A model generated the notes under the pieces. It saw only the letters and a list, made by a program, of their open reading frames with translations. It ran no database searches and had not been told where the DNA came from. Both the position numbers and the translations under genes were made by a program. A DNA stretch of 44,092 nt from an uncultured Clostridia bacterium (GTDB taxonomy: Bacteria; Bacillota; Clostridia; Christensenellales; UBA1242), in NCBI GenBank assembly GCA_944332315.1, contig CALVJT010000006.1, positions 1 through 44,092 of the forward strand, written 5' to 3'. Within the stretch, counting starts at the first letter, position 1, and every line of letters starts with the position of its first letter. Positions 1-44,092 of the stretch are shown here, piece by piece.

Positions 1-1474
1 GTTTTTGAAAATATTGCATATAATGTCACCGCTTCTGCTGGCATCTGCAATGAACTCAAAGCGCTTTGTGCGTTGCTATCTGTGTTCCAGCCGACGAATA
101 TCCAACCATCCGACTTCGTCGCATAACGGTTTGTTGTACTCAAATCCACTGCTTCACCTTCACCCAATACAACAGTACTTTCGTACCCACTAGCACTACC
201 AAAAGTTCCGCCATTGGTTGTAGCATCGTAAGTTACATCATAGCCAGGATTAAACACTTTCAGTGTTGGATAATTGTTGCCTATGATTTCCCACGTATCA
301 GTAAAGCTCCAAGATGTACTTGATGACCATTCTATTTTTTTAAATTCTTCTTCATTTATTACTTTACTAGGCAAATCAGGATCTTGTATACCAGTACCTC
401 TATATGTAGACCCTGTTGTGTTGTATGTTTGATTATAGTATGAATTAGCTGAAGCACCCCAAGACCCAGCAGTGATTCCACCTATACGTGTCCCGACACC
501 TTCGGAAGTCGCCTCCAATCCATTCCCGCTTTCAAAAACACTAAAACAATCTATAGCTATTGATGTATCACTATCGGAAAATGCTACGCCTAAAATACCT
601 CCAGAATATGCTTCCGTAAAAGAACCCACGCCTTTAGACTCCACTTTGCCTATATGATAGCAATTTTTTATAGTGACATTACTACTTGCTCCACCAACAA
701 CACCACCTGCACAATTATAAGAGTCGCCATCTGATTGAGCACTCATAGTTCCGATATGATAACAATTAGTAACTGAAGATTCCCCACCAGTGAGCGTCTG
801 TAAGCTCCCAGCAATTCCTCCAATTAGCGCAAAGGAACCGTCAGTTGATATATCACCTAATGAATAACAACTATCAATCTTAACATCATATCCACCACCA
901 ATAATTCCACCAACATCAGCCTGATAATATGTTGATTTTAATCCATTTTCCCAAATAACGCATAAATTTTTAATAGTGGCATCTCGTGCAAAACCTATAA
1001 GCCCAGCATAAGATACATTTGTTATAGTTATTGCATTTTCAAATGTAATTTTATGCCCATTCCCATCAAATACTCCATAAAAATAATTACCTTCGTTGGG
1101 CCCCTTGCCAATTGTCGTCCAAGTACTCGAAGTTACTGGTATATCGTCAGTTAACAATACATAGACAGGATCTGTAGCCGTCCCCCATTTTGTATCATCA
1201 TTTGCAAATTCCAATAGCTCCGTTTCATTGCTTATTGTATAATTGGGGCTCTCTGCTGTGCCTATTGCCATTGCAACTTTGTTGTATGATGGGTTTGGCA
1301 AACTCAAATAAATCGAAAAAGCTAACACAACTGCCAAAAGCCACACTATTATGTTTAGTGTAGCTAGTTTAGAACTTTTGCTATTTAGTTTTGTAGCTTT
1401 GCTTGCGTTCTTTTTTATTGGGTTAGAACTAAATACCCCCCCCCCCCCCCTACTTTTTTACTAAAATTAAACAT
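1..1474 (-). CDS. Large surface protein (GLUG-motif region followed by InlB B-repeat/Listeria-Bacteroides-type repeat); 3' end outside window; start out of frame at a poly-G tract
   Basis: Manual translation; missing from the ORF track because there is no stop in the window. RBS AAGGAG then ATG at 1474 (MFNFSKKV+G15). No stop found in the long frame 1436->1 in the stretches translated: hydrophobic segment LNIIVWLLAVVLAFSIYLSL, GTAESPNYTISNETELLEFAN, FDGNGHKI, YAGLIGFARDATIKNL, DVGGII/LIGGIAG/AGGVVG motifs, then GWIFVGWNTD...MPAEAVTLYAIF. Confidence 0.85.
1436..1450 (-). repeat. G15 homopolymer (C15 on +) inside the 5' coding region
   Basis: 15 consecutive C at 1436-1450 in a very AT-rich context, starting 24 nt after the first base of the ATG. 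Confidence 0.97.
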
Positions 1475-1510
1475 ACTTTGTTCTCCTTTTTCGCTTGTAT
1501 TGTTATCTTT

Positions 1511-1540
1511 AGTATAGCACAAATTAAAAATATTTTGCAA
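1511..1540 (-). promoter_or_regulatory. sigmaA-type promoter for the surface protein gene
   Basis: TTGCAA-18-TATACT with extended -10 TG. Confidence 0.6.
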
Positions 1541-18008: not shown

Positions 18009-19118
18009 ATGCCCACTGAAAGAATATCAATACTAAAATCTAAAAAGTTTCTATTGCCTAGTAAATCTAAAACATTTAATAGCATTATGTGGTACACAAC
18101 AAATGGGCGCGATTATCTTTTTAAGTTTCCACAAAAAAACAATAAATCTTTTAAGCCTTTTATAAATGAGGTGCTAATTTCTGCTATATGCAAGCGCCTT
18201 AACTTGCCTTGCCAAAAAGCTACTTTTGCTGTTTTTCACAAAACAATGGGCGTGAAAATAGAGAGTTTTTTAAGTAATGGCGAAGTTGAAATTCCACTTT
18301 ATGATTTTATTGGCAAACGCTTTCAACAAAGGCTTTACGAAGTAGTAGGCGAAGACTTTTTTGAGGATGCAATTATTCCGATGATAGAAAAACAAGGCAC
18401 CAAAGGCAAATCGAGAATAGATAAACAGGAACTGCTAAACGATTTTTTTGAACAGGTAACCTTTTTAATAGATTGCAAACTAAAAATTAGAGAATGTGCA
18501 CCTGCCGTACTAAAAAAAATAGAAAAAAACTATGAACAAATATATTCCCTTTATGATGAATTTGAGCACAAACTTGACGATAAAAGTATTTATAATTATA
18601 TGAATGAGTATGCGCACGAACAAAATTTGCAGATAAACCCACAATTAAAAGTTAATTATTGTAGGCAAATAATTTTAGATTTACTAACTGGTCAAGAGGA
18701 TAGGCACCTAAACAACATAAGTTTGCTACAAAATAAAAAAACCATCCGCCTTGCCCCCATGTATGATAATGGTCATTGCCTTTTATATAAAAGATATGAC
18801 GAATCAAACAAAACACAAATTTCGCTGACCGATTTTACTTACAGTATGCTAACTACAAACTCTATGCTTATGCGAGATTTATACGAAATTCAGAATTTTA
18901 TAAAAAATAATAGAAACGATTTTATTAATGATTTTATAAAAGAAAATTTCGAAGCATTAAGTAAAATTATACCTACAAAGCAAGAATTAAACGGTACCCA
19001 ATGGCTTTATGAATATTTGGATAATATTTTTAATTATATGCAAACAAATATGCTAATACTAAATAAAAACATTGAAAAATTTAAGGCAAATGAAGCATCA
19101 TTATCCCAAAAACCTTAA
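18009..19118 (+). CDS. HipA/CtkA-like serine/threonine kinase
   Basis: YLFKFP (Lys), NEVLIS (Glu), DLLTGQEDRHLNN (catalytic loop) and LAPMYDNG. Confidence 0.85.
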   Translation: MPTERISILKSKKFLLPSKSKTFNSIMWYTTNGRDYLFKFPQKNNKSFKPFINEVLISAICKRLNLPCQKATFAVFHKTMGVKIESFLSNGEVEIPLYDFIGKRFQQRLYEVVGEDFFEDAIIPMIEKQGTKGKSRIDKQELLNDFFEQVTFLIDCKLKIRECAPAVLKKIEKNYEQIYSLYDEFEHKLDDKSIYNYMNEYAHEQNLQINPQLKVNYCRQIILDLLTGQEDRHLNNISLLQNKKTIRLAPMYDNGHCLLYKRYDESNKTQISLTDFTYSMLTTNSMLMRDLYEIQNFIKNNRNDFINDFIKENFEALSKIIPTKQELNGTQWLYEYLDNIFNYMQTNMLILNKNIEKFKANEASLSQKP

Positions 19119-25644: not shown

Positions 25645-27114
<1,470 letters not shown>

Positions 27115-31221: not shown

Positions 31222-34200
31222 TCAATGGCCTTTAGTATCAATCAATTCCCTAATTTTATCTCTGCTATGCTTCTTTTTATAAGCTTTAATACTCAAGTAA
31301 ACTACTAATGCTATAACTGCAAGGCAAAGAATTGCTCCAACAATTATTAGTGGTATTTTTATAAAGTTTTCTATACTTACATTTACAGTTAAATTGCCTT
31401 GTATGTTGGATAGACTTTGGTCATAGGCAACCCTATCGCCAAAACCTAGTTCAACTTGAGGCACATCGGTCAAAGTACCACCGTGTTCCACAGTTTTAAT
31501 AACAGTAGTGCCATCTGGCATTATAAATGTTACAGTGTAGACATTTATTGTATAAACTGCATTAAATACCATATTGCTGGTTATGACAAAATCGTCAAAG
31601 TAGATTTTTTCGCCATTAGCATTTTGTAAGTAATACCTAATGTTTCCATCAACAGTTTCTTGGTATACACGCCATGTCACATTGTTGCTATCAACATAGC
31701 TATAGTATGGAGCCACTTGCGTGTAGCCAGTTAATGAAGGCAATGTAGGCAATGTAAAGCCCGCCAAAGTTGAACCAAAGGTTGCGTATCTTAATTCAGT
31801 TTGTCCATTTATTACAAATGAAATTACCAAATCATTGAGTTCGTACCTACCATAGAGAGAAAGATTTCTATCAATTGTAGTATTAAAGTCGAACACACGA
31901 GTAAGATCGCTATCATAGTACCATGAAACTATATGATTGCCCTCTGGCACTTCAATATCGTTAGGTGCAATTACCTTGCCATTATAAGCCACTTGTCTTG
32001 TTGCGCGCAACTGACCATCAACATAGAACTCTACAGTAAACACAATTGCTTCGTATTTGCCATAAATATACATATCTTGCGTTACTGTTGTGCCCTCAAA
32101 ATCAAATGGTTGTTCAAAATTAGCATCTGCATACCAACCAATTAGATTGTAGCCCTCAATATTAACTATATTAGCTTCTGGTAGTGTTACAAATTCGCCA
32201 TAGTCTCTGTACTGTCTTGTAATAACTCTATTGCCGTTCATAAATCTAATTTCAAACGAATCAGCAATATAGTGCCCATACAACTCTATGTCGCCCGTAA
32301 CTTGCGAATTAAAGTTATATAATTCGCTTGAGCCATACAAACACCAACCCCAGAAATTATAGCCTTCCATATAAGGATCGGTAGGTCTTGTTGCAGTATC
32401 CATATAAGCAACATACTGCACTTGCCCGTACTGTTGAGGGTTTTCCTCGCTGAGATAGAATGTTACAGTGTAAGTTGCCCTTGTGTACTCGGCATACAAA
32501 GTGATATCCTCATATATGCGCTCGGTTGCAAAATCAAATTCTTGTGTAAGAGCGCTATCCTTATACCAAGCCACAAAATCGTAGTGCAATAGCGTAGGAT
32601 CCTCTGGCGGTTCTATCAAACTGCCGTAAGGAACGCTTGTATAAGGCGCTACATACGAGCCATCTATGGAGTTAAATGTTACAACATAGGTGTTTATTGT
32701 AAGCCCTTCTACCCTAACCATAATATTATCGGCAACTCTATTAATATAGTATACACCATTGATGTTTAGTATTGGAGTATCGTTAGCATATACTTGAAGT
32801 ACACTTTCGTTATACGCTTCCTTAACCTCGATGCTAAATGCAAAGTCGTTGTTATAGTAAACTTCATTAGGGTCGTACCCCTCTACTACATTTATTATAG
32901 CAGCATTAGAATCAAGTTGAGGTAAAGTTATAGTATACTTTTCAATTACCCAATATGCAACAAGTGTTAAATCATTTGTATAGTTGAACGGAGTACTTGG
33001 AGTAATTTCGTCACCCTGAGGTTCGCCATCAATAATTGCGGTGTACCATCCAGAGAATATATACCCCTCGCGCGTTGCGGTAGGCCAATCTGTAGCAAGT
33101 GCACCAAATGTACTACCATATTGCGCTTGCGTTGCGATTGGACGCGCAGTACCGTTGTTTGCATCGTAGTAAACATTATATATTGCACCTGACCACTGTG
33201 CTGTCAACTTAAACTCTTGCCCTTGTACTGTAGTCAAATTTTGTACAAGTGCTTTATCATCGTAGAATCTACCTTGCGTATCTACCCAACGATCAAACAC
33301 ATACCCTTCTCTTGTAAAGGTGTTTGTCGAAAGCACTTTTGCAACATCGTATGTAAATACTTGTGGCTCCATTGTACCTTCACCACCACCAGCATCAAAT
33401 ACAATGGTATATGTAATTGCTTTCCAACTTGCAATTAAGGTATAGTTACCAGCACCAATTGTAAATTGTCCATCTACCAAAGAGCCTTGCCCTTCAACAC
33501 TGGCAACCTCTGTCCAGCCTTCAAATGTGTATCCTTCTCGGATAGGATCAGATACTGTATAAGGTTCTCCGCCGTAAGGTAAAGATTTCTCGACTGCTGT
33601 GCTAGAACCTTCGTAAGTTCCACCATTAGGGTCTATTACAAGCGTAAAGTTAGAGCTCCTAAAGTCTGCAACCAAGGTTTGAGCTGTAAGCCACTCTATT
33701 TGATAGGTATTTGTGTACTGTTGATCATCTATAAACCAACCGCTAAATTCGTAGCCGTTTAGCGTTACGGTTGGCAAGATACCGAGCGTACCACCATACT
33801 GATATGTCCTTGATAAGGTTTTGTTACCTGAATTATAGTCCCACTCATCTTCATTGTAGGTACCAAAAGTACCGCCATTAGCATCAAGTGTTACTACAAT
33901 ATTTATAGCTTCAAATACGCATCTAATTACAGCATTGCCTTCGCCCATAGTAAATGTCCATTGGCTACCATCGCCACCATTAGGGTCGAGAGTTCCACCA
34001 CCAGATTCTACTACTTCGTATTCGATAAAGTCATATCCAGCTTTATGAGGCAACGAATCATCATCAAACTCTAAAGTAATTTGATTTGTAGCCGATGCTT
34101 GCACTGAGTAGCGAGTCAGCTCCTGCCCGTCAACGGTGATAGCCCCGCCATCTAGCTCAAGCGTGAGCAAGTAGGTGCTAGTGCCCCAGTGTGCATAAAC

Positions 34201-37200
34201 AATTGTATCATTCTCTATTTTTACTGTTACAATAGAAGTTATTTGATCGGCACCATCATCCTGTCCCAAGAACCAACCTAGGAACACGCTATTGCCATCT
34301 TTAGGCAATGCAGGCAATGCGCCGTATGGACTATCGTATGTTACAGTTTTTGTAGCCGTATTGCCATTAACTGTCCATCCATCAGAACCAGTAGAAGCAG
34401 GAATATCTACATCGTGACCATTCAAATCAAAGGTCAAGGTAAATTCTCTAGCTTCATATATAGCCTCTACAGAGGCATTGGAATCTGTAAATATAAACTT
34501 CCAAACACCATCTTCATTTGTAATTTGACCAGAGCCTGAAGTAATCCTAAATTCAATAAAATCATATCCTGTTTTTTGCGGGTCTGCACTAAATGTATAT
34601 GACTGCCCTATTTGCATTTGTTGAGGTGCAATAGTGCTTTGCCCACCAATTGTACCGCCATTTAGGTCAATAGTTAAAGTATATGTTATAGGAGTATATT
34701 TAGCGGTTAGCGTATGATCCTGAGAAATACTTACTGTTGTTGCACCAACAACAATGTTGCCATCGGATGTTTGCCAGCCATCAAATGTGTAGCCCGCTTT
34801 ATAGGCAGTAGGTAGAGTGCCATCTATGGCATCATATCTATCGCCAAAGTAAACGCTAATTTGTACAGTTTCGCCCAAATCACCTTCGGCGCCTTGAATA
34901 GTTCCGCCATCGGCATCCAAAGTAACCTTCAAGGTTTGTGCTCTATATGTTGCAGTGATGACTGCATCAGTTGAGCCAAATGTAAATGTATAAATTCTAT
35001 TTGCGCCCTCGCCAGTCGATGTCAACTCGCCATCATCGCTGAGTAAGGTATATGTATCAAACTCATAGCCTTCCTTAGTAGGCACACCAAATTGAATTGT
35101 AGAACCAAAAGGTCTTTCCCATTGAGTTAGCCCGCCTTCGGTAGCAAGCGTACCGCCATCCAAAATCAAAGTTAGGGTGGAGGTTTTTTCGCGCCAATCA
35201 GCATAAAGAGTGTGATTGCCCTCTACATTTACTGTGGTAGACGATATGATGTAATCTTGATCGCTAGGATTTTGTTTCCAACCAGCAAAGTTGTAGCCAT
35301 CTCTTGTAGGAGTAGGCAATGCCCCATAGGATAGTCCATAGGTTACATTTATTGTAGTTGTATTTAATCCACTTTCAAACATACCTAAACCAGCATCAAG
35401 GGTAACTACGCCCTGTTTAGCAAGCCAATTTGTAACAAGTACTACATCGGTATCGCCAAGCACGAAGCTAACAATACCACCTTGAATAGAGTATGTACCC
35501 TCTCCGCTTTGGTCAAAGCCATCAAAATCGTATCCATACCTTGTAGGCTGATTGAATTCTATAGTTTGCCCAAACTCGCCTGAGTATTCTTTATATGCAA
35601 CATTATCGCCTTCATCAATGGAGCCACCGTTAAGGATAACACGAAGCGTCCATTTTTGAATTTCCCAATGAGCATACAATGTGTGCGCTTCGGCACGCGA
35701 TACAAGTTGTGTAGAGTAGACAATATCGCCGTCCACGCTTTGAGTATACCAACCTGTAAAGTCATAACCAGTTCTTGTAGGTGTTGGCAATGTACCATAT
35801 GGCATACCATAAATTATATCCTTAGATGCCACGGTGTTGCCACCATCAGCGCCTTGATAATCGAAAGTTAGCAAGTAGGTTTCGGCTTTCCAACTAGCAG
35901 TTATTGTGCCGTTGCTTGAGCCAAAGGTGTAGATGAACGCATCGCCATCCTCTTCAATATTTCCGCCACCGGTTAGTACCCAGCCTTCAAACTCGTAGCC
36001 CGTTCTTGTAGGCATAGCAATAGGCTGTGTGGCATCTATACTGCCTGTATATTGCGTGATATCCGAAGTTCCGTTAAATGTTCCGTTGTTAGGGTTTACA
36101 AACAAAGTGTACTCTATTTTTTCATACTGAGCATAAAGTCTGAAATCTTCATCCATTTCAACTCTACTGCTTGTATTCATTTGCACTCCGCCATTGCCCG
36201 AAACAGTGAACCAGCCCTTAAAGCGGTAGCCATCTAATTGAGCAACTGGCAAATCGCCATAAGTTGCGCCAAAGTCGTAGGCCTTTGTACCGGTTTTTCT
36301 ATCCTCGCTTACAGATATACCTGTGCTTGTTATGATACCTTCAACAGCATCAAATGTTACAACTATTAGTTTAGGTGACCACTGAGCTACTATTGTTGTA
36401 GTGCCCTCGCCAAAGATAAACGCAAAGCCTTCCTCAACGCTTCCTTCAACGGAGCCATAGGTTGTAGTGTTGTTCCAGCCCGTAAATTCATAGCCATAAC
36501 GCTCAGGAATTAGCAAGTCAATTCTTGAGCCATAACTGTTTGTAAAGGTAGTTGTGCCACTTTCGCCATCATATGTACCCCCGTTAGGGTTGATTATAAG
36601 GTTATAATTGATATCCGAAAATTTAGCAGTTACGGTAAAGTTTTCAAGCAAAGATACATCCAATGTATCGTAAATTCGATTGCCATTTTCCATATACCAG
36701 CCATCGAACATCTGCCCTATTTTGTACATATTTGGCAAAATGCCAAATGGTTCGCCGTAGAATACTGTAAGGGTTGCTGAATCGTCATACACATCGCCCT
36801 CAAAGCCTACAGTATCAACATAACTTGCACCAGCAAAGTTAAATGTAACTTGTACCGAAATTGGGTTCCAGCGCGCAACAAGTGTATGATCCTCGGCACG
36901 CGTCACAATAGTTTCCTCGGTAATTTTTTCGTCTAGCAAATACCATCCATCAAACTCATAGCCAACGCGCTCTACTTCTGGCAACTCATAAGGATAGCCA
37001 ACAAACAATCTTATCTGCGAATACTCCAAAACGCCACCTTGCGCGTTAAAGGTTACATTGATGTATTCGGTATCGTAGCGAGCATACAAAGTTTGATCGT
37101 CTGCAAGTGTTAAAAGCGAATCACTAAACACTTGTGTACCAACTTGTGGTGATGTAAACCAGCCAAGGAATGCCATTGACCCGTGCGAAACGCTAGGCAA

Positions 37201-40200
37201 TGCCCCATACTGCTCGCCATAAGTAACTTGCTTTGTGGTTGTATGTCCGCCAACCTCGCCCTCAAAGCCTTCGTTGGCAATAATAGTACCCTCGCCAGCA
37301 TCAAATGTGATGGTGTACGAATTGGCTTTCCAATGAGCATAGAGCGTCATATTAGATGAAACTTGATAATCACTCTCAATTTTTTCGCCTTCCTCTAGCT
37401 CAGTATACCAACCAAGGAACTCGTATCCAGCGCGAGTAGCGGTAGGCATAGTTTCGAAAGTATTGCCATACCTAATTTCCATTACGCTGATGTTAGTAGA
37501 ACCTAAGTTAGCATCAAAGTTTACAGTAAATGTCAAGACATTCCACCTAGCATAAAGTGTAATTTGCCCATTAACCTCATCAGTTAGATTTGTTACGCTA
37601 GCGCCATCACTATAACTTTGACCAGTGCCATCAGCCCTACTGTTCCAACCAGCAAACTCATAGCCTAAACGAGTAAATGTGTTAGCTGGCAATATAACTT
37701 GGCTTCCGTATGTTGTTTTAACAGAGTCCATTGTGCCATTGCCACCATTGCTACTAAAGTAGATAGTGTATTCATTAGGCGCCCATTGAGCCGAGATAAC
37801 AGCATCTTGAGACCCAAAGGTAAAGCTGTTTCTATTCGCCGTTCCGTTGCCAGATGTTATATTCCACCCAGTAAAGGAGTGTCCTACACGGTCTGGGGTC
37901 AATAAATCTATAGTTCCGCCAGCTTCTCCAGTAAACTCTACTACATCAGTAGAATTATTATAGCTACCGCCATTAGGATTTATAGTAAGCCTATATAATT
38001 GTGGAGCATATTTAGCTGTTAGGGTGATGTTCTCTTCCCAAGAAACAGTGCTGGTGCTATAAACTTCTGAGCCATTAGGGTCTACCCACGCCTCAAAAGT
38101 GTAGCCTGCTTTTACTAGGTTAGCCGCTGTTGGCAAATTGCCAAACGTTCCATCCGATTGAACTTGCAAATCAATTGTATTATCCTCTTGCACCTCTCCA
38201 AAAGCATCAACGTTTTGCCATGTTCCTTCGTTAGGATCAAGCGTCACAGTTATGGTTATTCTCTCCCACCCAGCTGTTAATGTTATATTTGTATCAGGGA
38301 AAAGGAATGTATATCCATTTTCCTCATCACCAACAAGCGAAACTTCGATAGGAGTTTGCGTGCCTGTGATAGTTGCAGTGTAGCCAGTAAATGCATAACC
38401 AAACCTTGTAGGTGCTTGTACTGGTACAGTAGAACCATAATCTCTAATTATTGCAGTTACATTGTTAGAACCATTATAAAGTCCACCATTAGGGTCTATT
38501 GTGAGTGTGAGCGACATTATTTGCCACTGAGCAAATAGTGTAACCTCGCCATTGTTTTCGAGCGTAAGATCTACAACACTAGTCCCATTACGGTAAGCAG
38601 TGCCGTTGCCATCTTTATCGGTATTCCAACCAGTAAAGTTGTAGCCTGTTCTATCAAAACCATTTTCTGTTAAATCAATGTATGTGCCAACTTGCGCATC
38701 CAAACTACTCATAGTCCCACTTGTAGCGCCGTTGCCATCAAAGTGAATTGTGTAGTTATTGGCGTTCCAAATAGCTATAATGCTACCATTGCCATTACCA
38801 AAAGTAAATACATAGGAGCCCGTGCTATCATCAACACTGCCTTTATAGTAATCGTTTTGTTGTACATTCCAGCCACCAAAATCGTAGCCTGCACGCTTAG
38901 GAAGTGGAAGTGTGATAGTTGTAGGGTTTTCTACATCATAAGAACCTGTGTAGGTGCCTGTAAACTCCTCGTCATCTACAGTACCGCCATCTAGGTTTAC
39001 AGATAATGTATATATTTTTTGAGTCCAATTAGCATAGAAAGTAGTGCCAGCCGTATCTATAACAGTATCGGTAGCAACAACTACATTTTCAAAAGTTGCT
39101 TCCCTAAACCATCCGGCAAAGGTATAGCCTTCATATACATCATTTGAAAGTACAGGCAAGCTCGAATACTTTTGCCCCACATAAACAATAATTTCTGCAG
39201 GTTCCTGAGCGCCCGCAGGGCCGTAGTTAAGCGTGATAGTTATAGGCTGTGCCTCCCAATTAGCTTGAATGCTTGCGTTGTCGTTGCCGAACAAATATCC
39301 ATAACCATTAATAGGGTCATTTACAAGTTGTCCAGCACTTTCTGGGCCGACATTAAAACCAGTTAGTTGATACCCTGGGCGCGTTATATCCGCAAACCAA
39401 ATAGTTTGACCATAGTCGCCCCTAATTGTTATTGTACCTGTTTGAGGCCCATCCTCGCCATCGTATGTACCACCATTAAGGTCTATCCAAAGAGTGTAGT
39501 TGCTTGCTCTCCACGCAGCATATAAATAGAAGTTTGTAACAGAATTTACAGTGGAAGCTGCCGTGATTTCCTCGCCTTCACCATTAGGTTGAGTAAACCA
39601 GCCCAAGAATGTAAATCCTTGTCGTGTAGGCGTTGGCAATTCCTCATACACAGTTTCGTAGCCAAACGAAAGTGTCAAAACATTTTGAGTTTGCCCTTCA
39701 ACATCAATGCTACCGCCTCGTGCATCAAATGTAACAACAACATATACAGGAGCATACTCTACATAAACTGTAATTGTATCCTCTTCCGACCTTACAACTC
39801 TCATTTCTCCAACAGGAGTTTCATCGTCAAGCAAATATTGATTTACAGTATATCCGGTTAATGTAGCAGTAGGCAACGTTCCATATGTATCACCATAATC
39901 TTTTTCTATGGTAGCAGTTTTATAATCGTTCGAAAGCTCGTAGCCAAAACTTTCGTTTTCAGTATCAAATGTACCATCGCCAGCATCAAAAACAACTGTA
40001 ATTGTTCTTGGAGTAAATATTGGTTCCAAGGACATATTCTCTGTTACATATGTACTATAATCTACAGGTTCATCTGTATCAACATCTTTATAGCCATCAA
40101 ATGTATAGCCCTCGAGTTCAATTTCTGGCAAAGTGCCAAGCTGATCGCCGTGATAGTAGGTTTTTCTTGCCGATGTGCCGCTTTGCTCAAATTCGTACAA

Positions 40201-43200
40201 CACTGTAAATGTCCCGCCCAATGAAGCAATAGATACGGTATATTCATATTGTTGCCACAAAGCATAAAGCACTACAGTACTGCCGTTTGCAATAGATAAA
40301 TCTACCACATTTTGACCATCTAGGTAAATAGTACCAGAGCCATCGCTATATTGCGTCCAACCTATAAAATCTGCTGTAGGGCTAGAAAATAGGTTTTGTG
40401 GTAATACAACGCTTACGCCGTACTGAGCAGTGATAGGCTCCATTGGCCCGCCAACTGCATCATCGCGGTTAGCATCAAACTCAATTGTGTATGTTATAGG
40501 TGCCCAGCATGCATATAACACCATACTTTCAATAACTGGGTCATACTCGCTAACATATGTAGTACCATTATATTCTTTAGCCCACCCAAGCAAAGTGTAG
40601 CCCTCGCGGGTAGTTGATGGCAAGTAGCCCAAAACTTCGTTATAATTATAAGTTCTTTCGGAAATAGAGCAGAAGCCACCATTTGCATTGAATGTAACGG
40701 TATACTTTTCAGGGCTAAACACGGCATAGAGCGTGATGTTTTCGGTAATTTTTACCGTACTATTTGGCAAATACTGATTGCCATCTCCATAGCGATCGTC
40801 AAACCACCCTAAAAAGCTTGCACCCGCTTGCGATACGCTCGGGAATACTCCATACTCGCTATCATAGTACACACTTTTGGTTGCTCTATTGTTTTGGATG
40901 CTTTCGGTTGGAAAGTTTTCATCCGCAACCAAAGTACCTGTGTTGCCATCAAAAGTGATAGTTATTGCTGCTGGATCCCATTGCGCTACCAAAGTGATAT
41001 CGGATGTAACAGTATCATCCTCGTTTGCTACACGGCTTGTATCGGTGTTATATACCCAGTGCTTAAAGGTAAAGCCACCGCGCGTAGGCTCAGGTAATTC
41101 GCCTATAACACTGCCATAATCGCGCGAAACTGTTGGAGTACTAACCTCGCCACCGTTTGCATCAAACACTACCATAAGTCTGTTTACATTGTAGTGCGCA
41201 TAAATTTCTAAATTGTAAACATATGTATATAAACTTGTAGATACAAATTGATCTGTTTTATCTATTGGATCTCCAAACCATCCAACAAAGTTTGAACCAA
41301 CAAGTTTAGGAGTAGGCAAAGTGCCTAAAGTCGAATTATAATCTATAGTTCTAGATGCAGATAGGTTATCTTCACTATAATCCCAACCATCTACCTGCGA
41401 AAGCGTTCCGCCTTGCCCATATAAAGTTACGGTAAACTGCATTGGAGCATAGTGAGCATAGAATGTTGCCCCAGCGGTGACAACATAACCTTGCTCGATT
41501 TGTTCATCATCACTAGTAAACCACCCAAGGAAAGTATAGCCTGTGTACCGAACATCAGGTAGCACCTCAATGCGAGAATTGTACTGATAGGATACAGTAG
41601 ATGTCGACCTACCCGTAACGCCATCAAATCCGCCAGTTTCTTGAATTATACCGCCCACTGCATCGTAGATGACATCGTACATTATGCTTTGCCATACGGC
41701 ATACAAAGTTATTACAGTGCCATTAGTGGATGTTAGATTTAGTACATTGCTACCATCACCATAAATGGTACCACTGCCCATTGCATCTAAACTCCAACCA
41801 CTAAACCTAAAACCACTGCGCTCATAAGTATTGGTTTTTAATTGACTTAATTGCCCGTACTTAAACTCAGATCGAGTCATTTCGGTGCCACCAGTAGCCC
41901 CGTTGCCATCGTAATTTACATAGTATGTGATAGGGTCCCACTTCGCCTGAATTATGGTGTTGCCACTATCAAAAGTAAAGATACCACCCTTATAAGTTCC
42001 AGGACCAGATGTTATTTCCCAAGTATTTAAGGTATAACCTTCTCTGTGCGGAGTTGGCAAAGTAAATGTATTACCTGGTTGGCCCTCCTCGGTTTGGAGT
42101 GGGTCTCCATTAACTTTATTTATTGTTAGCACATATGTATTTTCGGCGTAGTGAGCGTACAGCGCCATATCGTCTGAGTTTTTATAAATAGTAGATTCAT
42201 TGTACTGCGTTCCGCCAGTGCCACTTGTGTACCAACCAGTAGGGTTATAGCCTATTTTGCCTACAGTTGGCATAGGCCCTATTGCCTGATCGTATGTTAC
42301 AGTTTTAGTGTAGTATACGGAGTTGCCAGAACCTACTTGCGTAAAGCCCTCTACACTTACCCATTTTGCATCATCATCATTTTTGTAGAACGAAAGTGTA
42401 TAGGTTCTAGCTGTCCAATTGGCTGTAACTGAGCCATTGCCCGCACCAAATGTGTATCTTGTGCCGTTTACGCTACCAGCCCCGCTAGAGTTAGACCAGC
42501 TTGCAAATTGGTATCCCACACGCGTGGTAGTTGGCAAGGTTATTTGCTCGTTGATATTGCCAACAATAGTTATACTGTTAGTGCTGTTGTTATATGTACC
42601 GCCATTAAAGTTTATAGTTAGTGTATAATCTATTTCTCGCCAATGCGCATATAGCGTAGTTGCGCTAGGAAAACGCACTAAACTGCCCACATCGTAGCGC
42701 GTGCCACCAGAACTGCTTGTGTACCAACCATCAAACTCGTAGCCCGAGCGCGTTGGCGTAGGCATACTGCTTATGATATCTCCATAATCAAAGTGCTGAT
42801 ATGCCGTTTTGTTGGAAGCCGTCCAACCATTCATCCCCGTCCACTGCGAAGCATCAAAATCGGCCTCGTTTGCCTGCAAGGTTAAATTATAACTTAATGT
42901 TTTCCACTCGGCATATAGTGTTATAGAATTTGCCGTGGATGGTAGCATTGATACTCTTAAAACGGTAGAACTTGTAACAACGCTAGATGACGAAAGTGAA
43001 CTATCATAGTGCCAGTTTACGAACCCCCAGCCCTCTCTAGCCGGCTTTGTAAGAGAGCCAAATGTGCTATCCAATCTAACCGTTGTTGGCGCAACATAAC
43101 TACCGCCGTTGGTATTAAACGATACTGTTATGTTTGCTGGGGTCCAATTAGCATAAAGGGTATCGCTAGCAACATCCTCTCCCCATGATTGATAGGATGT

Positions 43201-44092
43201 TCCAGATGAATTGTAGTACTTTGTTCCACTACCATTCCTTCCTGTATAGTACCCCTCAAAGGTGTAGTGCGTACGGCTAGGCACATTAATCCTTGGCATT
43301 GAACTGCCATAGGTTGCTTCTGTAGATTTCGTACCGCCAGAGCCCTCTCCAGGGTCAAAATAGATATTTGATGTTTTAGCAGTCCATTCGGCATATAACG
43401 TTGTATCGTTATAAAATACAGTACTAGAATATACTCGACTGCCCGAACCAGTCATCCAGTATTCAAAATAGTACCCCTCTCTACTTGGTTCTGGTAGAGA
43501 ATATCCATTTTGAGATAGCGTTGAACTATCGTCAATATCTGCACTAGCAGTCTTACCGCTGTAGTCCCAACCAGAAATATAATTCCAATACCGAGCATTT
43601 TCATCTGCCTCTGGTGCACGCAATGTTATGGTGATTGATGGTATTCCCCACACAGCGTATAGGGTAATTACATCATCAGCTTCAGTAGTCAAATTTTTTA
43701 CTGACTGGCCATTTGTATATCTAACTGTATTGCTATATGAACTAGTAGCCCAACCTAAAAATTCATACCCACTACGAGTAAATCGATTGGCAGAAAGTCC
43801 TTGTGAACGTCCGTAAGTAAATGTTTGGTCGGACATGCTACCACTTCCGCCATTACGATTGAACCTTACTTGATATTGGTTTGCCTCCCAATGGGCATAC
43901 CAAATATCATTGGCATTCATATCGTAATTTCTATTACCAACCCCGTTCGCGTTTATATATTGATCCCCACTACTAGCTGAAGTATAGTATCCGGTAAATG
44001 TATAACCTGTTCTAGTAGGGATGGTTACTGTTGGAGCCACTTTGCCATATGTTACTTGTATTGTTTTATCGCTACCGCTACCGCCGTTAGGC
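31222..44092 (-). CDS. Giant surface protein made of InlB B-repeat (Listeria-Bacteroides/Flg_new) domains, C-terminal TM anchor; 5' end outside window
   Basis: Dozens of ~70-aa units F[DN]xNGG...LPTPTRxGYxFxGW...TLYAxW; C-terminal IPLIIVGAILCLAVIALVVYLSI plus basic tail; frame stays open from 44040 to the window edge. Confidence 0.95.
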   Translation of the reverse strand, partial: PNGGSGSDKTIQVTYGKVAPTVTIPTRTGYTFTGYYTSASSGDQYINANGVGNRNYDMNANDIWYAHWEANQYQVRFNRNGGSGSMSDQTFTYGRSQGLSANRFTRSGYEFLGWATSSYSNTVRYTNGQSVKNLTTEADDVITLYAVWGIPSITITLRAPEADENARYWNYISGWDYSGKTASADIDDSSTLSQNGYSLPEPSREGYYFEYWMTGSGSRVYSSTVFYNDTTLYAEWTAKTSNIYFDPGEGSGGTKSTEATYGSSMPRINVPSRTHYTFEGYYTGRNGSGTKYYNSSGTSYQSWGEDVASDTLYANWTPANITVSFNTNGGSYVAPTTVRLDSTFGSLTKPAREGWGFVNWHYDSSLSSSSVVTSSTVLRVSMLPSTANSITLYAEWKTLSYNLTLQANEADFDASQWTGMNGWTASNKTAYQHFDYGDIISSMPTPTRSGYEFDGWYTSSSGGTRYDVGSLVRFPSATTLYAHWREIDYTLTINFNGGTYNNSTNSITIVGNINEQITLPTTTRVGYQFASWSNSSGAGSVNGTRYTFGAGNGSVTANWTARTYTLSFYKNDDDAKWVSVEGFTQVGSGNSVYYTKTVTYDQAIGPMPTVGKIGYNPTGWYTSGTGGTQYNESTIYKNSDDMALYAHYAENTYVLTINKVNGDPLQTEEGQPGNTFTLPTPHREGYTLNTWEITSGPGTYKGGIFTFDSGNTIIQAKWDPITYYVNYDGNGATGGTEMTRSEFKYGQLSQLKTNTYERSGFRFSGWSLDAMGSGTIYGDGSNVLNLTSTNGTVITLYAVWQSIMYDVIYDAVGGIIQETGGFDGVTGRSTSTVSYQYNSRIEVLPDVRYTGYTFLGWFTSDDEQIEQGYVVTAGATFYAHYAPMQFTVTLYGQGGTLSQVDGWDYSEDNLSASRTIDYNSTLGTLPTPKLVGSNFVGWFGDPIDKTDQFVSTSLYTYVYNLEIYAHYNVNRLMVVFDANGGEVSTPTVSRDYGSVIGELPEPTRGGFTFKHWVYNTDTSRVANEDDTVTSDITLVAQWDPAAITITFDGNTGTLVADENFPTESIQNNRATKSVYYDSEYGVFPSVSQAGASFLGWFDDRYGDGNQYLPNSTVKITENITLYAVFSPEKYTVTFNANGGFCSISERTYNYNEVLGYLPSTTREGYTLLGWAKEYNGTTYVSEYDPVIESMVLYACWAPITYTIEFDANRDDAVGGPMEPITAQYGVSVVLPQNLFSSPTADFIGWTQYSDGSGTIYLDGQNVVDLSIANGSTVVLYALWQQYEYTVSIASLGGTFTVLYEFEQSGTSARKTYYHGDQLGTLPEIELEGYTFDGYKDVDTDEPVDYSTYVTENMSLEPIFTPRTITVVFDAGDGTFDTENESFGYELSNDYKTATIEKDYGDTYGTLPTATLTGYTVNQYLLDDETPVGEMRVVRSEEDTITVYVEYAPVYVVVTFDARGGSIDVEGQTQNVLTLSFGYETVYEELPTPTRQGFTFLGWFTQPNGEGEEITAASTVNSVTNFYLYAAWRASNYTLWIDLNGGTYDGEDGPQTGTITIRGDYGQTIWFADITRPGYQLTGFNVGPESAGQLVNDPINGYGYLFGNDNASIQANWEAQPITITLNYGPAGAQEPAEIIVYVGQKYSSLPVLSNDVYEGYTFAGWFREATFENVVVATDTVIDTAGTTFYANWTQKIYTLSVNLDGGTVDDEEFTGTYTGSYDVENPTTITLPLPKRAGYDFGGWNVQQNDYYKGSVDDSTGSYVFTFGNGNGSIIAIWNANNYTIHFDGNGATSGTMSSLDAQVGTYIDLTENGFDRTGYNFTGWNTDKDGNGTAYRNGTSVVDLTLENNGEVTLFAQWQIMSLTLTIDPNGGLYNGSNNVTAIIRDYGSTVPVQAPTRFGYAFTGYTATITGTQTPIEVSLVGDEENGYTFLFPDTNITLTAGWERITITVTLDPNEGTWQNVDAFGEVQEDNTIDLQVQSDGTFGNLPTAANLVKAGYTFEAWVDPNGSEVYSTSTVSWEENITLTAKYAPQLYRLTINPNGGSYNNSTDVVEFTGEAGGTIDLLTPDRVGHSFTGWNITSGNGTANRNSFTFGSQDAVISAQWAPNEYTIYFSSNGGNGTMDSVKTTYGSQVILPANTFTRLGYEFAGWNSRADGTGQSYSDGASVTNLTDEVNGQITLYARWNVLTFTVNFDANLGSTNISVMEIRYGNTFETMPTATRAGYEFLGWYTELEEGEKIESDYQVSSNMTLYAHWKANSYTITFDAGEGTIIANEGFEGEVGGHTTTKQVTYGEQYGALPSVSHGSMAFLGWFTSPQVGTQVFSDSLLTLADDQTLYARYDTEYINVTFNAQGGVLEYSQIRLFVGYPYELPEVERVGYEFDGWYLLDEKITEETIVTRAEDHTLVARWNPISVQVTFNFAGASYVDTVGFEGDVYDDSATLTVFYGEPFGILPNMYKIGQMFDGWYMENGNRIYDTLDVSLLENFTVTAKFSDINYNLIINPNGGTYDGESGTTTFTNSYGSRIDLLIPERYGYEFTGWNNTTTYGSVEGSVEEGFAFIFGEGTTTIVAQWSPKLIVVTFDAVEGIITSTGISVSEDRKTGTKAYDFGATYGDLPVAQLDGYRFKGWFTVSGNGGVQMNTSSRVEMDEDFRLYAQYEKIEYTLFVNPNNGTFNGTSDITQYTGSIDATQPIAMPTRTGYEFEGWVLTGGGNIEEDGDAFIYTFGSSNGTITASWKAETYLLTFDYQGADGGNTVASKDIIYGMPYGTLPTPTRTGYDFTGWYTQSVDGDIVYSTQLVSRAEAHTLYAHWEIQKWTLRVILNGGSIDEGDNVAYKEYSGEFGQTIEFNQPTRYGYDFDGFDQSGEGTYSIQGGIVSFVLGDTDVVLVTNWLAKQGVVTLDAGLGMFESGLNTTTINVTYGLSYGALPTPTRDGYNFAGWKQNPSDQDYIISSTTVNVEGNHTLYADWREKTSTLTLILDGGTLATEGGLTQWERPFGSTIQFGVPTKEGYEFDTYTLLSDDGELTSTGEGANRIYTFTFGSTDAVITATYRAQTLKVTLDADGGTIQGAEGDLGETVQISVYFGDRYDAIDGTLPTAYKAGYTFDGWQTSDGNIVVGATTVSISQDHTLTAKYTPITYTLTIDLNGGTIGGQSTIAPQQMQIGQSYTFSADPQKTGYDFIEFRITSGSGQITNEDGVWKFIFTDSNASVEAIYEAREFTLTFDLNGHDVDIPASTGSDGWTVNGNTATKTVTYDSPYGALPALPKDGNSVFLGWFLGQDDGADQITSIVTVKIENDTIVYAHWGTSTYLLTLELDGGAITVDGQELTRYSVQASATNQITLEFDDDSLPHKAGYDFIEYEVVESGGGTLDPNGGDGSQWTFTMGEGNAVIRCVFEAINIVVTLDANGGTFGTYNEDEWDYNSGNKTLSRTYQYGGTLGILPTVTLNGYEFSGWFIDDQQYTNTYQIEWLTAQTLVADFRSSNFTLVIDPNGGTYEGSSTAVEKSLPYGGEPYTVSDPIREGYTFEGWTEVASVEGQGSLVDGQFTIGAGNYTLIASWKAITYTIVFDAGGGEGTMEPQVFTYDVAKVLSTNTFTREGYVFDRWVDTQGRFYDDKALVQNLTTVQGQEFKLTAQWSGAIYNVYYDANNGTARPIATQAQYGSTFGALATDWPTATREGYIFSGWYTAIIDGEPQGDEITPSTPFNYTNDLTLVAYWVIEKYTITLPQLDSNAAIINVVEGYDPNEVYYNNDFAFSIEVKEAYNESVLQVYANDTPILNINGVYYINRVADNIMVRVEGLTINTYVVTFNSIDGSYVAPYTSVPYGSLIEPPEDPTLLHYDFVAWYKDSALTQEFDFATERIYEDITLYAEYTRATYTVTFYLSEENPQQYGQVQYVAYMDTATRPTDPYMEGYNFWGWCLYGSSELYNFNSQVTGDIELYGHYIADSFEIRFMNGNRVITRQYRDYGEFVTLPEANIVNIEGYNLIGWYADANFEQPFDFEGTTVTQDMYIYGKYEAIVFTVEFYVDGQLRATRQVAYNGKVIAPNDIEVPEGNHIVSWYYDSDLTRVFDFNTTIDRNLSLYGRYELNDLVISFVINGQTELRYATFGSTLAGFTLPTLPSLTGYTQVAPYYSYVDSNNVTWRVYQETVDGNIRYYLQNANGEKIYFDDFVITSNMVFNAVYTINVYTVTFIMPDGTTVIKTVEHGGTLTDVPQVELGFGDRVAYDQSLSNIQGNLTVNVSIENFIKIPLIIVGAILCLAVIALVVYLSIKAYKKKHSRDKIRELIDTKGH

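Follow-up and report, generated by a model that had tools for sequence, protein, structure and literature searches.

The window analysed here, 44,092 nucleotides (nt) long, is the entire contig C6 of the genome of an uncultured Clostridia bacterium (Christensenellales; UBA1242), hereafter G000 (1.33 Mb in 77 contigs, 36% guanine plus cytosine (GC)). Near one end, on the minus strand, a run of exactly 15 G's follows the eighth codon of a gene for a putative surface protein. With a probability of about 0.75, we take this G15 tract to be the switch of a translational contingency locus of the slipped-strand type, which belongs to a large family spread through the genus. A contingency locus at this site had been proposed in a first-pass annotation made from the letters of the window, and comparison strengthens that proposal in three respects: the tract belongs to a cassette with about 22 copies in the genome, the cassette is genus-wide (9/9 congeners versus 0/31 genomes outside the genus), and most copies are out of frame with long intact open reading frames (ORFs).

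The poly-G locus and its product

The gene consists of the following elements.

1511..1540, minus strand: predicted promoter of the switch gene, with -35 TTGCAA, an 18-nt spacer and a TG-extended -10 TATACT
1475..1510, minus strand: conserved 5' untranslated region (UTR) and Shine-Dalgarno (SD) sequence, AATACAAGCGAAAAAGGAGAACAAAGT, with GGAG at 1486-1483 and the ATG 8 nt further on
1451..1474, minus strand: leader MFNFSKKV, the ATG plus 7 codons, from direct reading and the ORF table
1436..1450, minus strand (poly-C on the plus strand): poly-G of exactly 15 nt, the proposed slippage site, directly after codon 8
1415..1435, minus strand: OFF-frame tail, TAT TTA GTT CTA ACC CAA TAA, that is YLVLTQ and the stop at 1417-1415
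1359..1433, minus strand: start of the long frame, first 25 codons, a Lys-rich and acid-free tail with no start codon before GTG 1346
1299..1358, minus strand: hydrophobic helix LNIIVWLLAVVLAFSIYLSL, a candidate signal-anchor or export segment
3..1298, minus strand: predicted ectodomain with GGxxG / NCY-type repeats (weak GLUG match at 651-719) and a Flg_new / InlB B-repeat (15-242)

Reading of the minus strand and the ORF table agree with the first-pass annotation on the ribosome-binding site (RBS), the ATG at 1474, the eight codons, the G15 tract and the stop TAA at 1417-1415, and frame arithmetic bears out its statement that G13 or G16 would join the leader to the long frame. The UTR ends at its 3' side in AAAGGAGAA, and the ATG at 1474-1472 comes next, while the promoter matches the consensus at 9/12 positions with the TG present. 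In the ORF table the product of the leader ORF has 19 amino acids (aa) and ends in ...MFNFSKKVGGGGGYLVLTQ. By the same arithmetic, the gene is OFF at G15, where only this 19-aa peptide is encoded, and ON at G13 or G16, where the frame covers 477 codons in the window and about 275 more on contig C47. By direct reading, the long frame (entry 3..1346 of the ORF table, minus strand) is open from just past the TAA at 1460-1458 and across the tract. Its earliest ATG, GTG or TTG is the GTG at 1346, which lacks an SD sequence and would start the protein inside the hydrophobic helix, and hence the long frame is sensibly reachable only from ATG 1474 at G13 or G16. Runs of at least nine G's are confined to this one spot in the window (7 overlapping matches against 0.16 expected; 0/100 shuffles reach 7), and no RNA family matched anywhere in the window.

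When ON, the frame has a total of about 750 codons. Contig C47 overlaps the end of the window at 100% identity, and the gene stops there after ...NNWWIV*; an independent database protein of 723 aa spans the same extent. The hydrophobic helix is a 19-residue window (residues 23-41, mean Kyte-Doolittle 2.49), and the 22 residues preceding it contain six K+R and no D+E. By-eye inspection of the translation found neither an LPXTG motif nor a second hydrophobic helix at the C-terminus; the product is therefore likely an N-in, single-pass and adhesin-like protein with a large ectodomain. The first-pass annotation had placed the tract in the signal region of the gene. A hydrophobic export segment does exist, but the tract lies 22 residues upstream of it, in the K-rich cytoplasmic tail and outside a classic signal peptide. 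Likewise, of the GLUG and B-repeat domains that it had named, Flg_new / InlB B-repeat is supported at residues 398-473 of the C6 product (28.4 bits, above the Pfam cut-off of 27), whereas GLUG scores 17 bits in this copy, under its cut-off of 20.5, and is above it in 6/13 paralogues.

The cassette in the genome and the genus

The lengths of G/C homopolymers in G000 are bimodal: there are 11 of 7 nt, 5 of 8 nt, 2 of 9 nt, none of 10 nt and 28 of 11-16 nt, while base composition predicts, by our own arithmetic, about 0.02 tracts of at least 11 nt. The first-pass annotation had suggested a genome search for further genes with an RBS, an ATG, a short leader and at least nine G's. Such a search, with a regular expression of RBS, ATG, 15-26 nt and tract, matched 21/30 of the tracts of at least 9 nt, and C20 is an extra copy with a weaker RBS, giving about 22 copies in total. 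They share one layout at the head of large surface proteins, namely an own promoter, UTR, RBS, ATG, 7-9 codons and the poly-G. Alignment of the 200 nt upstream over about 20 cassettes shows a -35 TTGATA and an extended -10 TGTGnTATACT in each, together with a conserved UTR (AATACAAGnGAAAAAGGAG) and a leader of the form M-F-x-x-x-K-K-V; leaders identical or nearly identical to that of C6 are present at C2, C8, C21 and C55. Because every copy has its own promoter upstream, and the similarity between cassettes ends beyond the -35, the poly-G tract forms no part of the promoter here.

Promoter, UTR and leader are thus conserved across copies and the ectodomains are variable. A K/R-rich tail of 22-185 residues followed by one helix was found in 12/13 members with at least 100 codons, the thirteenth running off its contig. 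Among the ectodomains of these 13 members, GLUG is above the cut-off in six and DUF6273 in three (one of them also with Flg_new), and four match no Pfam family. Two copies with different tracts, C20 (G13) and C38 (G12), are 98% identical over the 128 nt past the tract, which lends indirect support to polymorphism of the tract length.

The cassette appears to be specific for the genus. The pattern AAGGAG-N5-10-ATG-N18-24-G9 occurs in 10/10 genus genomes (G000 and 9/9 congeners), 0/15 genomes from other genera of the family and 0/16 from other families of the order, and a reversed-pattern control gave 0. G/C tracts of at least 11 nt in any context number 7-48 per genome in the genus, 0-8 in the other genera of the family and 0-2 in the other families; for these bare homopolymer counts the reversed control carries no information. 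The leader peptides vary between species (for instance MIFRTKVL, MKYLTKW, MLQEMKNA and MKIQKNKIL), and the layout is constant. All these genus genomes are reduced, at 1.0-1.3 Mb. By its GyrB, the bacterium groups with uncultured Clostridia/Christensenellales metagenome-assembled genomes; the best hits that carry a name (as given by the submitters) show 68-73% identity along the full length, and one partial hit shows 83%. Sequencing runs carrying the window number 17 from 9 studies, and they are mostly recorded as chicken-gut metagenomes.

The position of the poly-G is kept in relatives while its length and the frame state differ. At the 12 best homologue loci in other species, eight have a 5' tract of G10-G16, of which five are OFF, one is ON and two are unscorable (L149 is cut by a contig end; L156 is a multi-tract locus with its leader cassettes OFF and an unclear long frame). 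The remaining 4/12 have no tract in the stretch examined.

Some tracts in the genus differ from the standard cassette. Promoter-placed tracts are seen at G009 L109 and L122 (TTGACA-aaatga-G13-TATAAT and TTGACA-G14-tagtgg-TATACT), and at 40-55 of G000 contig C19 a C16 tract immediately precedes the TTGCAA-17-TATAAT promoter of an ORF of 373 aa. Transcriptional poly-G switches may thus also be in use in the genus. Two G tracts with Lys-coding poly-A between them are found at G008 L147 and L156 and at G000 C53 (24837-24850) and C37 (20-33). One example is G13-A17-T-A15-GAA-G16, and in all such genes both tracts would need to be in phase. The C53 and C37_20 tracts sit behind poly-A runs, and the 5' ends of their genes are cut by contig ends. 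G013, G017 and G014, genomes from other genera of the same family, have 8, 4 and 3 tracts of at least 11 nt without a leader-cassette match, and the tract context in sister genera may be a different one. In G006 the tracts are strand-coherent per contig (C1 and C2 all plus; C4 and C12 all minus), which suggests that the cassette genes share one orientation along long stretches, perhaps that of replication.

Within the family, a sub-family at G000 C18:15224, C55:1023 and C68:15466 and at G009 L121 has the conserved motif LLSDSKTA[TS]G shortly after the helix, with the variants ALQSSKTATG and ALSSSKSAWG, and no Pfam match; the motif resembles SipW-type (TasA/camelysin-like) signal peptides. Two further G000 copies, C10:2599-2611 and C45:8776-8788, carry post-tract sequence of the C6 type (tatttagttctaaccca...) with only 63 and 13 open codons, respectively, and are probably decayed remnants of C6-like genes.

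Frame states, proposed switching and alternatives

Frame states were scored in G000 and two congeners, at those loci where an RBS precedes the start and the long frame has 100 codons or more. Offsets are the change in tract length that would bring the leader into the long frame.

G000, whole genome: 13 scorable loci; 3 ON, 6 needing +1, 4 needing -1
G009, every one of the 27 tracts listed for contigs C1-C5: 22 scorable loci; 5 ON, 4 needing +1, 13 needing -1
G006, 39 of 41 tracts (2 at contig starts dropped; 11 of the 39 unscorable): 28 scorable loci; 7 ON, 5 needing +1, 16 needing -1
Three genomes in total: 63 scorable loci; 15 ON, 15 needing +1, 33 needing -1

The ON fraction in G000 and G009 together (8/35) fits one third (p = 0.21) and not the 0.9 of ordinary genes (p ~1e-20). 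Moreover, past the tract the ten scorable OFF copies of G000 all remain open for 130-1286 codons, while in the other two frames a stop comes after a median of 1.5 codons and 18 at most (35 loci). A random codon would be a stop about 7% of the time (our estimate from base composition); these OFF frames are hence not open by chance, and we take them to be the signature of genes kept functional yet switched at one site.

The same figures bear on the idea of a decaying family, in which the out-of-frame copies would be pseudogenes in a shrinking genome. The genome is indeed small (1.33 Mb), and degenerate copies do occur (C10 with 63 codons, C45 with 13 codons past the tract, and G009 L118, which is full of stops). 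However, decay does not account for open frames in 10/10 scorable OFF copies of G000 in which the sole lesion is always at the tract, nor for the conservation of promoter, RBS and leader, and we regard it as extremely improbable.

Proteins from other assemblies give a second view of the frame states. A naturally in-frame member of G000, C65 (MFKKNKKV-GGGGG-ESS..., 803 aa), was used as a query, and the protein pool after this search held 121 proteins, P0001 included. Of these, 7/121 open with Gly3-5 behind a leader of the genus type or behind the final residues of one, counting the protein from the own genome. Intact proteins with leader, Gly3/4/5 and long frame are P0021, P0032, P0045, P0073 and P0081, all from other assemblies; P0078 is called from an ATG just ahead of the tract, and several pool proteins begin with the helix itself ("MWLL..."), as is expected of truncated calls. 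The C65 search returned no near-identical proteins except the one from the own genome, and P0032, P0045 and P0073 were rejected as alleles, being about 30% identical and therefore paralogues. P0001 is the C6 gene from another assembly (97% identical), and it is called from the internal GTG. Such a call fits either of two cases, a leader that is out of frame in that assembly as well or a contig that breaks off at the tract, and it is an instance of the truncated gene call that the first-pass annotation had predicted for this locus.

The in-frame forms with three, four or five glycines indicate that the DNA tract lengths differ between copies, which speaks against a route that leaves the DNA untouched. 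By that route, RNA-polymerase slippage or ribosomal frameshifting would give some in-frame product from every copy, so that the tract would act as a dimmer and not as a heritable switch. Long homopolymers provoke transcriptional slippage, and since 33/63 loci need exactly -1, one recoding event could be the normal path to the product. Recoding can also coexist with DNA slippage and may well add leakiness. However, the offsets are mixed (15 ON, 15 needing +1 and 33 needing -1), and therefore no single recoding event would serve all loci. Hungry-codon ribosomal frameshifting found no support as a candidate: tRNA-Gly(CCC) is present and GGG makes up 17% of the Gly codons, hence is not rare, so that this stimulus is missing; the look for a stimulatory structure or slow codon went no further than the stops past the tract. 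Recoding as the main route seems unlikely to us.

The mechanism that we favour instead, replication slippage at the tract, would proceed as follows. A near-consensus promoter and a strong RBS would drive translation from ATG 1474, with constitutive transcription, and after eight codons the ribosome would read the G tract as glycines. At G15 it would stop after six more codons, and at G13 or G16 it would enter the frame of about 750 codons. Slippage during replication of the 12-16-nt tracts would gain or lose G's at high frequency, and each of at least 20 cassette genes would flip ON or OFF independently. Within a clonal population the surface proteins would then appear in many combinations, the majority of the genes being OFF at a given time. 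The benefit would probably lie in evading host antibody or phage, or in a change of adhesion.

Several observations weigh against this proposal or limit its reach. Firstly, the state that is one base too long is over-represented among the OFF loci (13/22 scorable loci in G009 and 16/28 in G006), and a systematic +1 homopolymer call in these two assemblies would make most of their OFF loci ON. The excess may stem from shared descent of paralogues, from mutational bias or from systematic assembly bias. Secondly, paralogues are not independent, as in the near-identical MVKYLTK group of G006, and the counts therefore overstate the sample size. Thirdly, all frame states come from consensus assemblies of error-prone homopolymers of 12-16 nt, and the proposal that the C6 gene was captured OFF would hold to the extent that one consensus assembly of a 15-nt homopolymer is right. 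The Logan contigs of four public runs (depth 3-7) break off within the tract or next to it without any of them spanning it, a result that is neutral as to length variation, and two exact-pattern metagenome scans, one with the tract edge plus downstream flank and the other with the conserved leader, returned 0 matches. Fourthly, the best cross-species homologues of the C6 protein are at most 41% identical, no nearer than its in-genome paralogues, so the gene has no 1:1 orthologue. The flanking 290-aa gene is kept in 8/9 congeners, the divergent adjacent cassette gene was found only in G006 and the downstream one in G007; with an unconserved neighbourhood and no 1:1 orthologue, the tract is untraceable at one orthologous site. 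Finally, mismatch repair is intact: MutS_V and MutL_C are above the cut-off, in open frames without internal stops, in 10/10 genus genomes, unlike the situation in Campylobacter and Helicobacter. Loss of mismatch repair was accordingly rejected as a cause, since MutS and MutL are present, and the background is not of the Campylobacter type. Since the organism keeps its repair, it may take tracts of this unusual length for switching to be fast enough.

On the alternative reading of assembly error, the genes would be constitutive with an in-frame poly-Gly and the frameshifts would be faults of sequencing or assembly at homopolymers, with no switching at all. Tracts of G12-16 are hard for every platform, 13/30 G000 tracts of at least 9 nt are found no more than about 250 nt from a contig end, most OFF loci in G009 and G006 are the same one base away from ON, and the failure of the public-run contigs to bridge the tract points the same way. 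Yet such errors would be needed at 48/63 loci in three assemblies, and as the G000 offsets go both ways (six need +1 and four need -1), no single bias would repair that genome. PCR (polymerase chain reaction) and Illumina stutter mostly shortens homopolymers, and the observed excess is one base too long. In addition, error leaves unexplained why 7-48 long G tracts follow codon 7-9 of surface genes in a genus of 36% GC and not in its sister genera, and why both other frames stop immediately. We therefore find it very unlikely that assembly error accounts for the pattern.

Taken at the level of the genus, the slippage proposal leads to a broader one that we favour by a narrow margin over its negation: a genus of gut Clostridia with reduced genomes may run one of the largest homopolymer phasomes known, built on a portable cassette that fronts fast-diverging, anchored adhesin-like proteins with mismatch repair intact, surface variation being a core trait of its lifestyle. 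The promoter-spacer tracts and the dual G-polyA-G tracts are included in this broader proposal, and the lengths of G12-G16 may compensate for repair. The tie to lifestyle would perhaps be attachment to host or partner cells, or phage pressure.

Related systems and other genes in the window

The known system that comes nearest in function is the opa family of Neisseria. The opa genes have CTCTT repeats in the region coding for the leader peptide. Opa has been described as a family of about 11 genes with stochastic phase variation (PMC3745409) and as a phase-variable multi-locus antigen (PMC13183285). Both systems comprise a scattered family of surface-protein genes with a slippage-prone repeat just past the start codon, whose frame would set the state of each locus. 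In our case, however, the repeat is a homopolymer and not a pentamer, the products are predicted N-anchored GLUG/InlB-B-repeat proteins of a Clostridia lineage and not outer-membrane beta-barrels, the loci outnumber those of opa 2-4 times, and the switching is a proposed one.

In scale the family resembles the poly-G phasome of Campylobacter. There the tracts are about G8-G11, lie at varied positions mostly in glycosylation and surface-modification genes, and MutS/MutL mismatch repair is absent; here they are G11-G16, in a single conserved 5' cassette, with MutS and MutL present. Campylobacter is described as carrying tens of poly-G contingency tracts inside the genes of a small, AT-rich genome (PMC6321876). 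Another parallel is the sortase-pilus of Bifidobacterium breve, for which it is reported that an intragenic G tract sets ON or OFF by replication slippage, verified by Maximum Depth Sequencing, which excludes errors (PMC9187656). This is likewise a gut commensal of Gram-positive lineage with an intragenic G tract in a gene for a surface structure, but it belongs to the Actinomycetota and has two pilus loci without a shared leader cassette, against a family of 20-48 genes here. In nanH3 of Gardnerella, a poly-C of 8-14 nt near the 5' end gives a 37-44-aa peptide at most lengths and the full protein at some, and its length was shown to vary within strains (bioRxiv 10.1101/2020.09.16.300947). The C6 gene shares with it a homopolymer near the 5' end of a gene for a cell-surface protein and a short peptide predicted at most lengths; unlike nanH3, which is a single gene with the tract about 100 nt in and past a cleavable signal peptide, the tract here comes after codon 8 and ahead of a long cytoplasmic tail.

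In the class Clostridia itself, switches of the cwpV type in Clostridioides difficile yield phase-variable surface proteins through site-specific DNA inversion of a regulatory element. The proposed mechanism here is repeat slippage and not inversion; nothing at the C6 locus pointed to an invertible element, although no inverted-repeat search was made. The full-text literature searched contained no account of poly-G phase variation in Christensenellales or other uncultured Clostridia. The mechanism is classical; what appears to be new is the gene family, its conserved cassette, the number of its loci and the lineage in which it occurs.

Repeat-driven phase variation is textbook knowledge for a few small-genome pathogens, and in gut commensals attention has mostly gone to invertible promoters. 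In an uncultured commensal Clostridia genus of animal guts, dozens of loci that make up at least about 2.5% of the genome appear to be given over to surface proteins switched by poly-G. In that case Clostridia would have a form of phase variation for which there is no earlier description, annotation pipelines for metagenome-assembled genomes would truncate or miss the main surface repertoire (one database entry is already an example), and single consensus genomes would hide a large within-strain surface diversity. The conserved cassette offers a simple sequence signature for metagenome searches and amplicon targets for following switching in vivo.

Three other genes of the window may be mentioned. 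A giant ORF of at least 4289 aa at 31222-44091 (minus strand) contains 19 Flg_new (Listeria-Bacteroides repeat) stretches, and its N-terminus runs off the contig end. At 25645-27096 (minus strand) lies a gene for a 483-aa protein with collagen triple-helix repeats, in which BclA_C scores 36.1 bits, below its 38-bit cut-off. The gene at 18009-19118 (plus strand) encodes a protein with a HipA-like C-terminal domain, possibly a toxin-antitoxin kinase.

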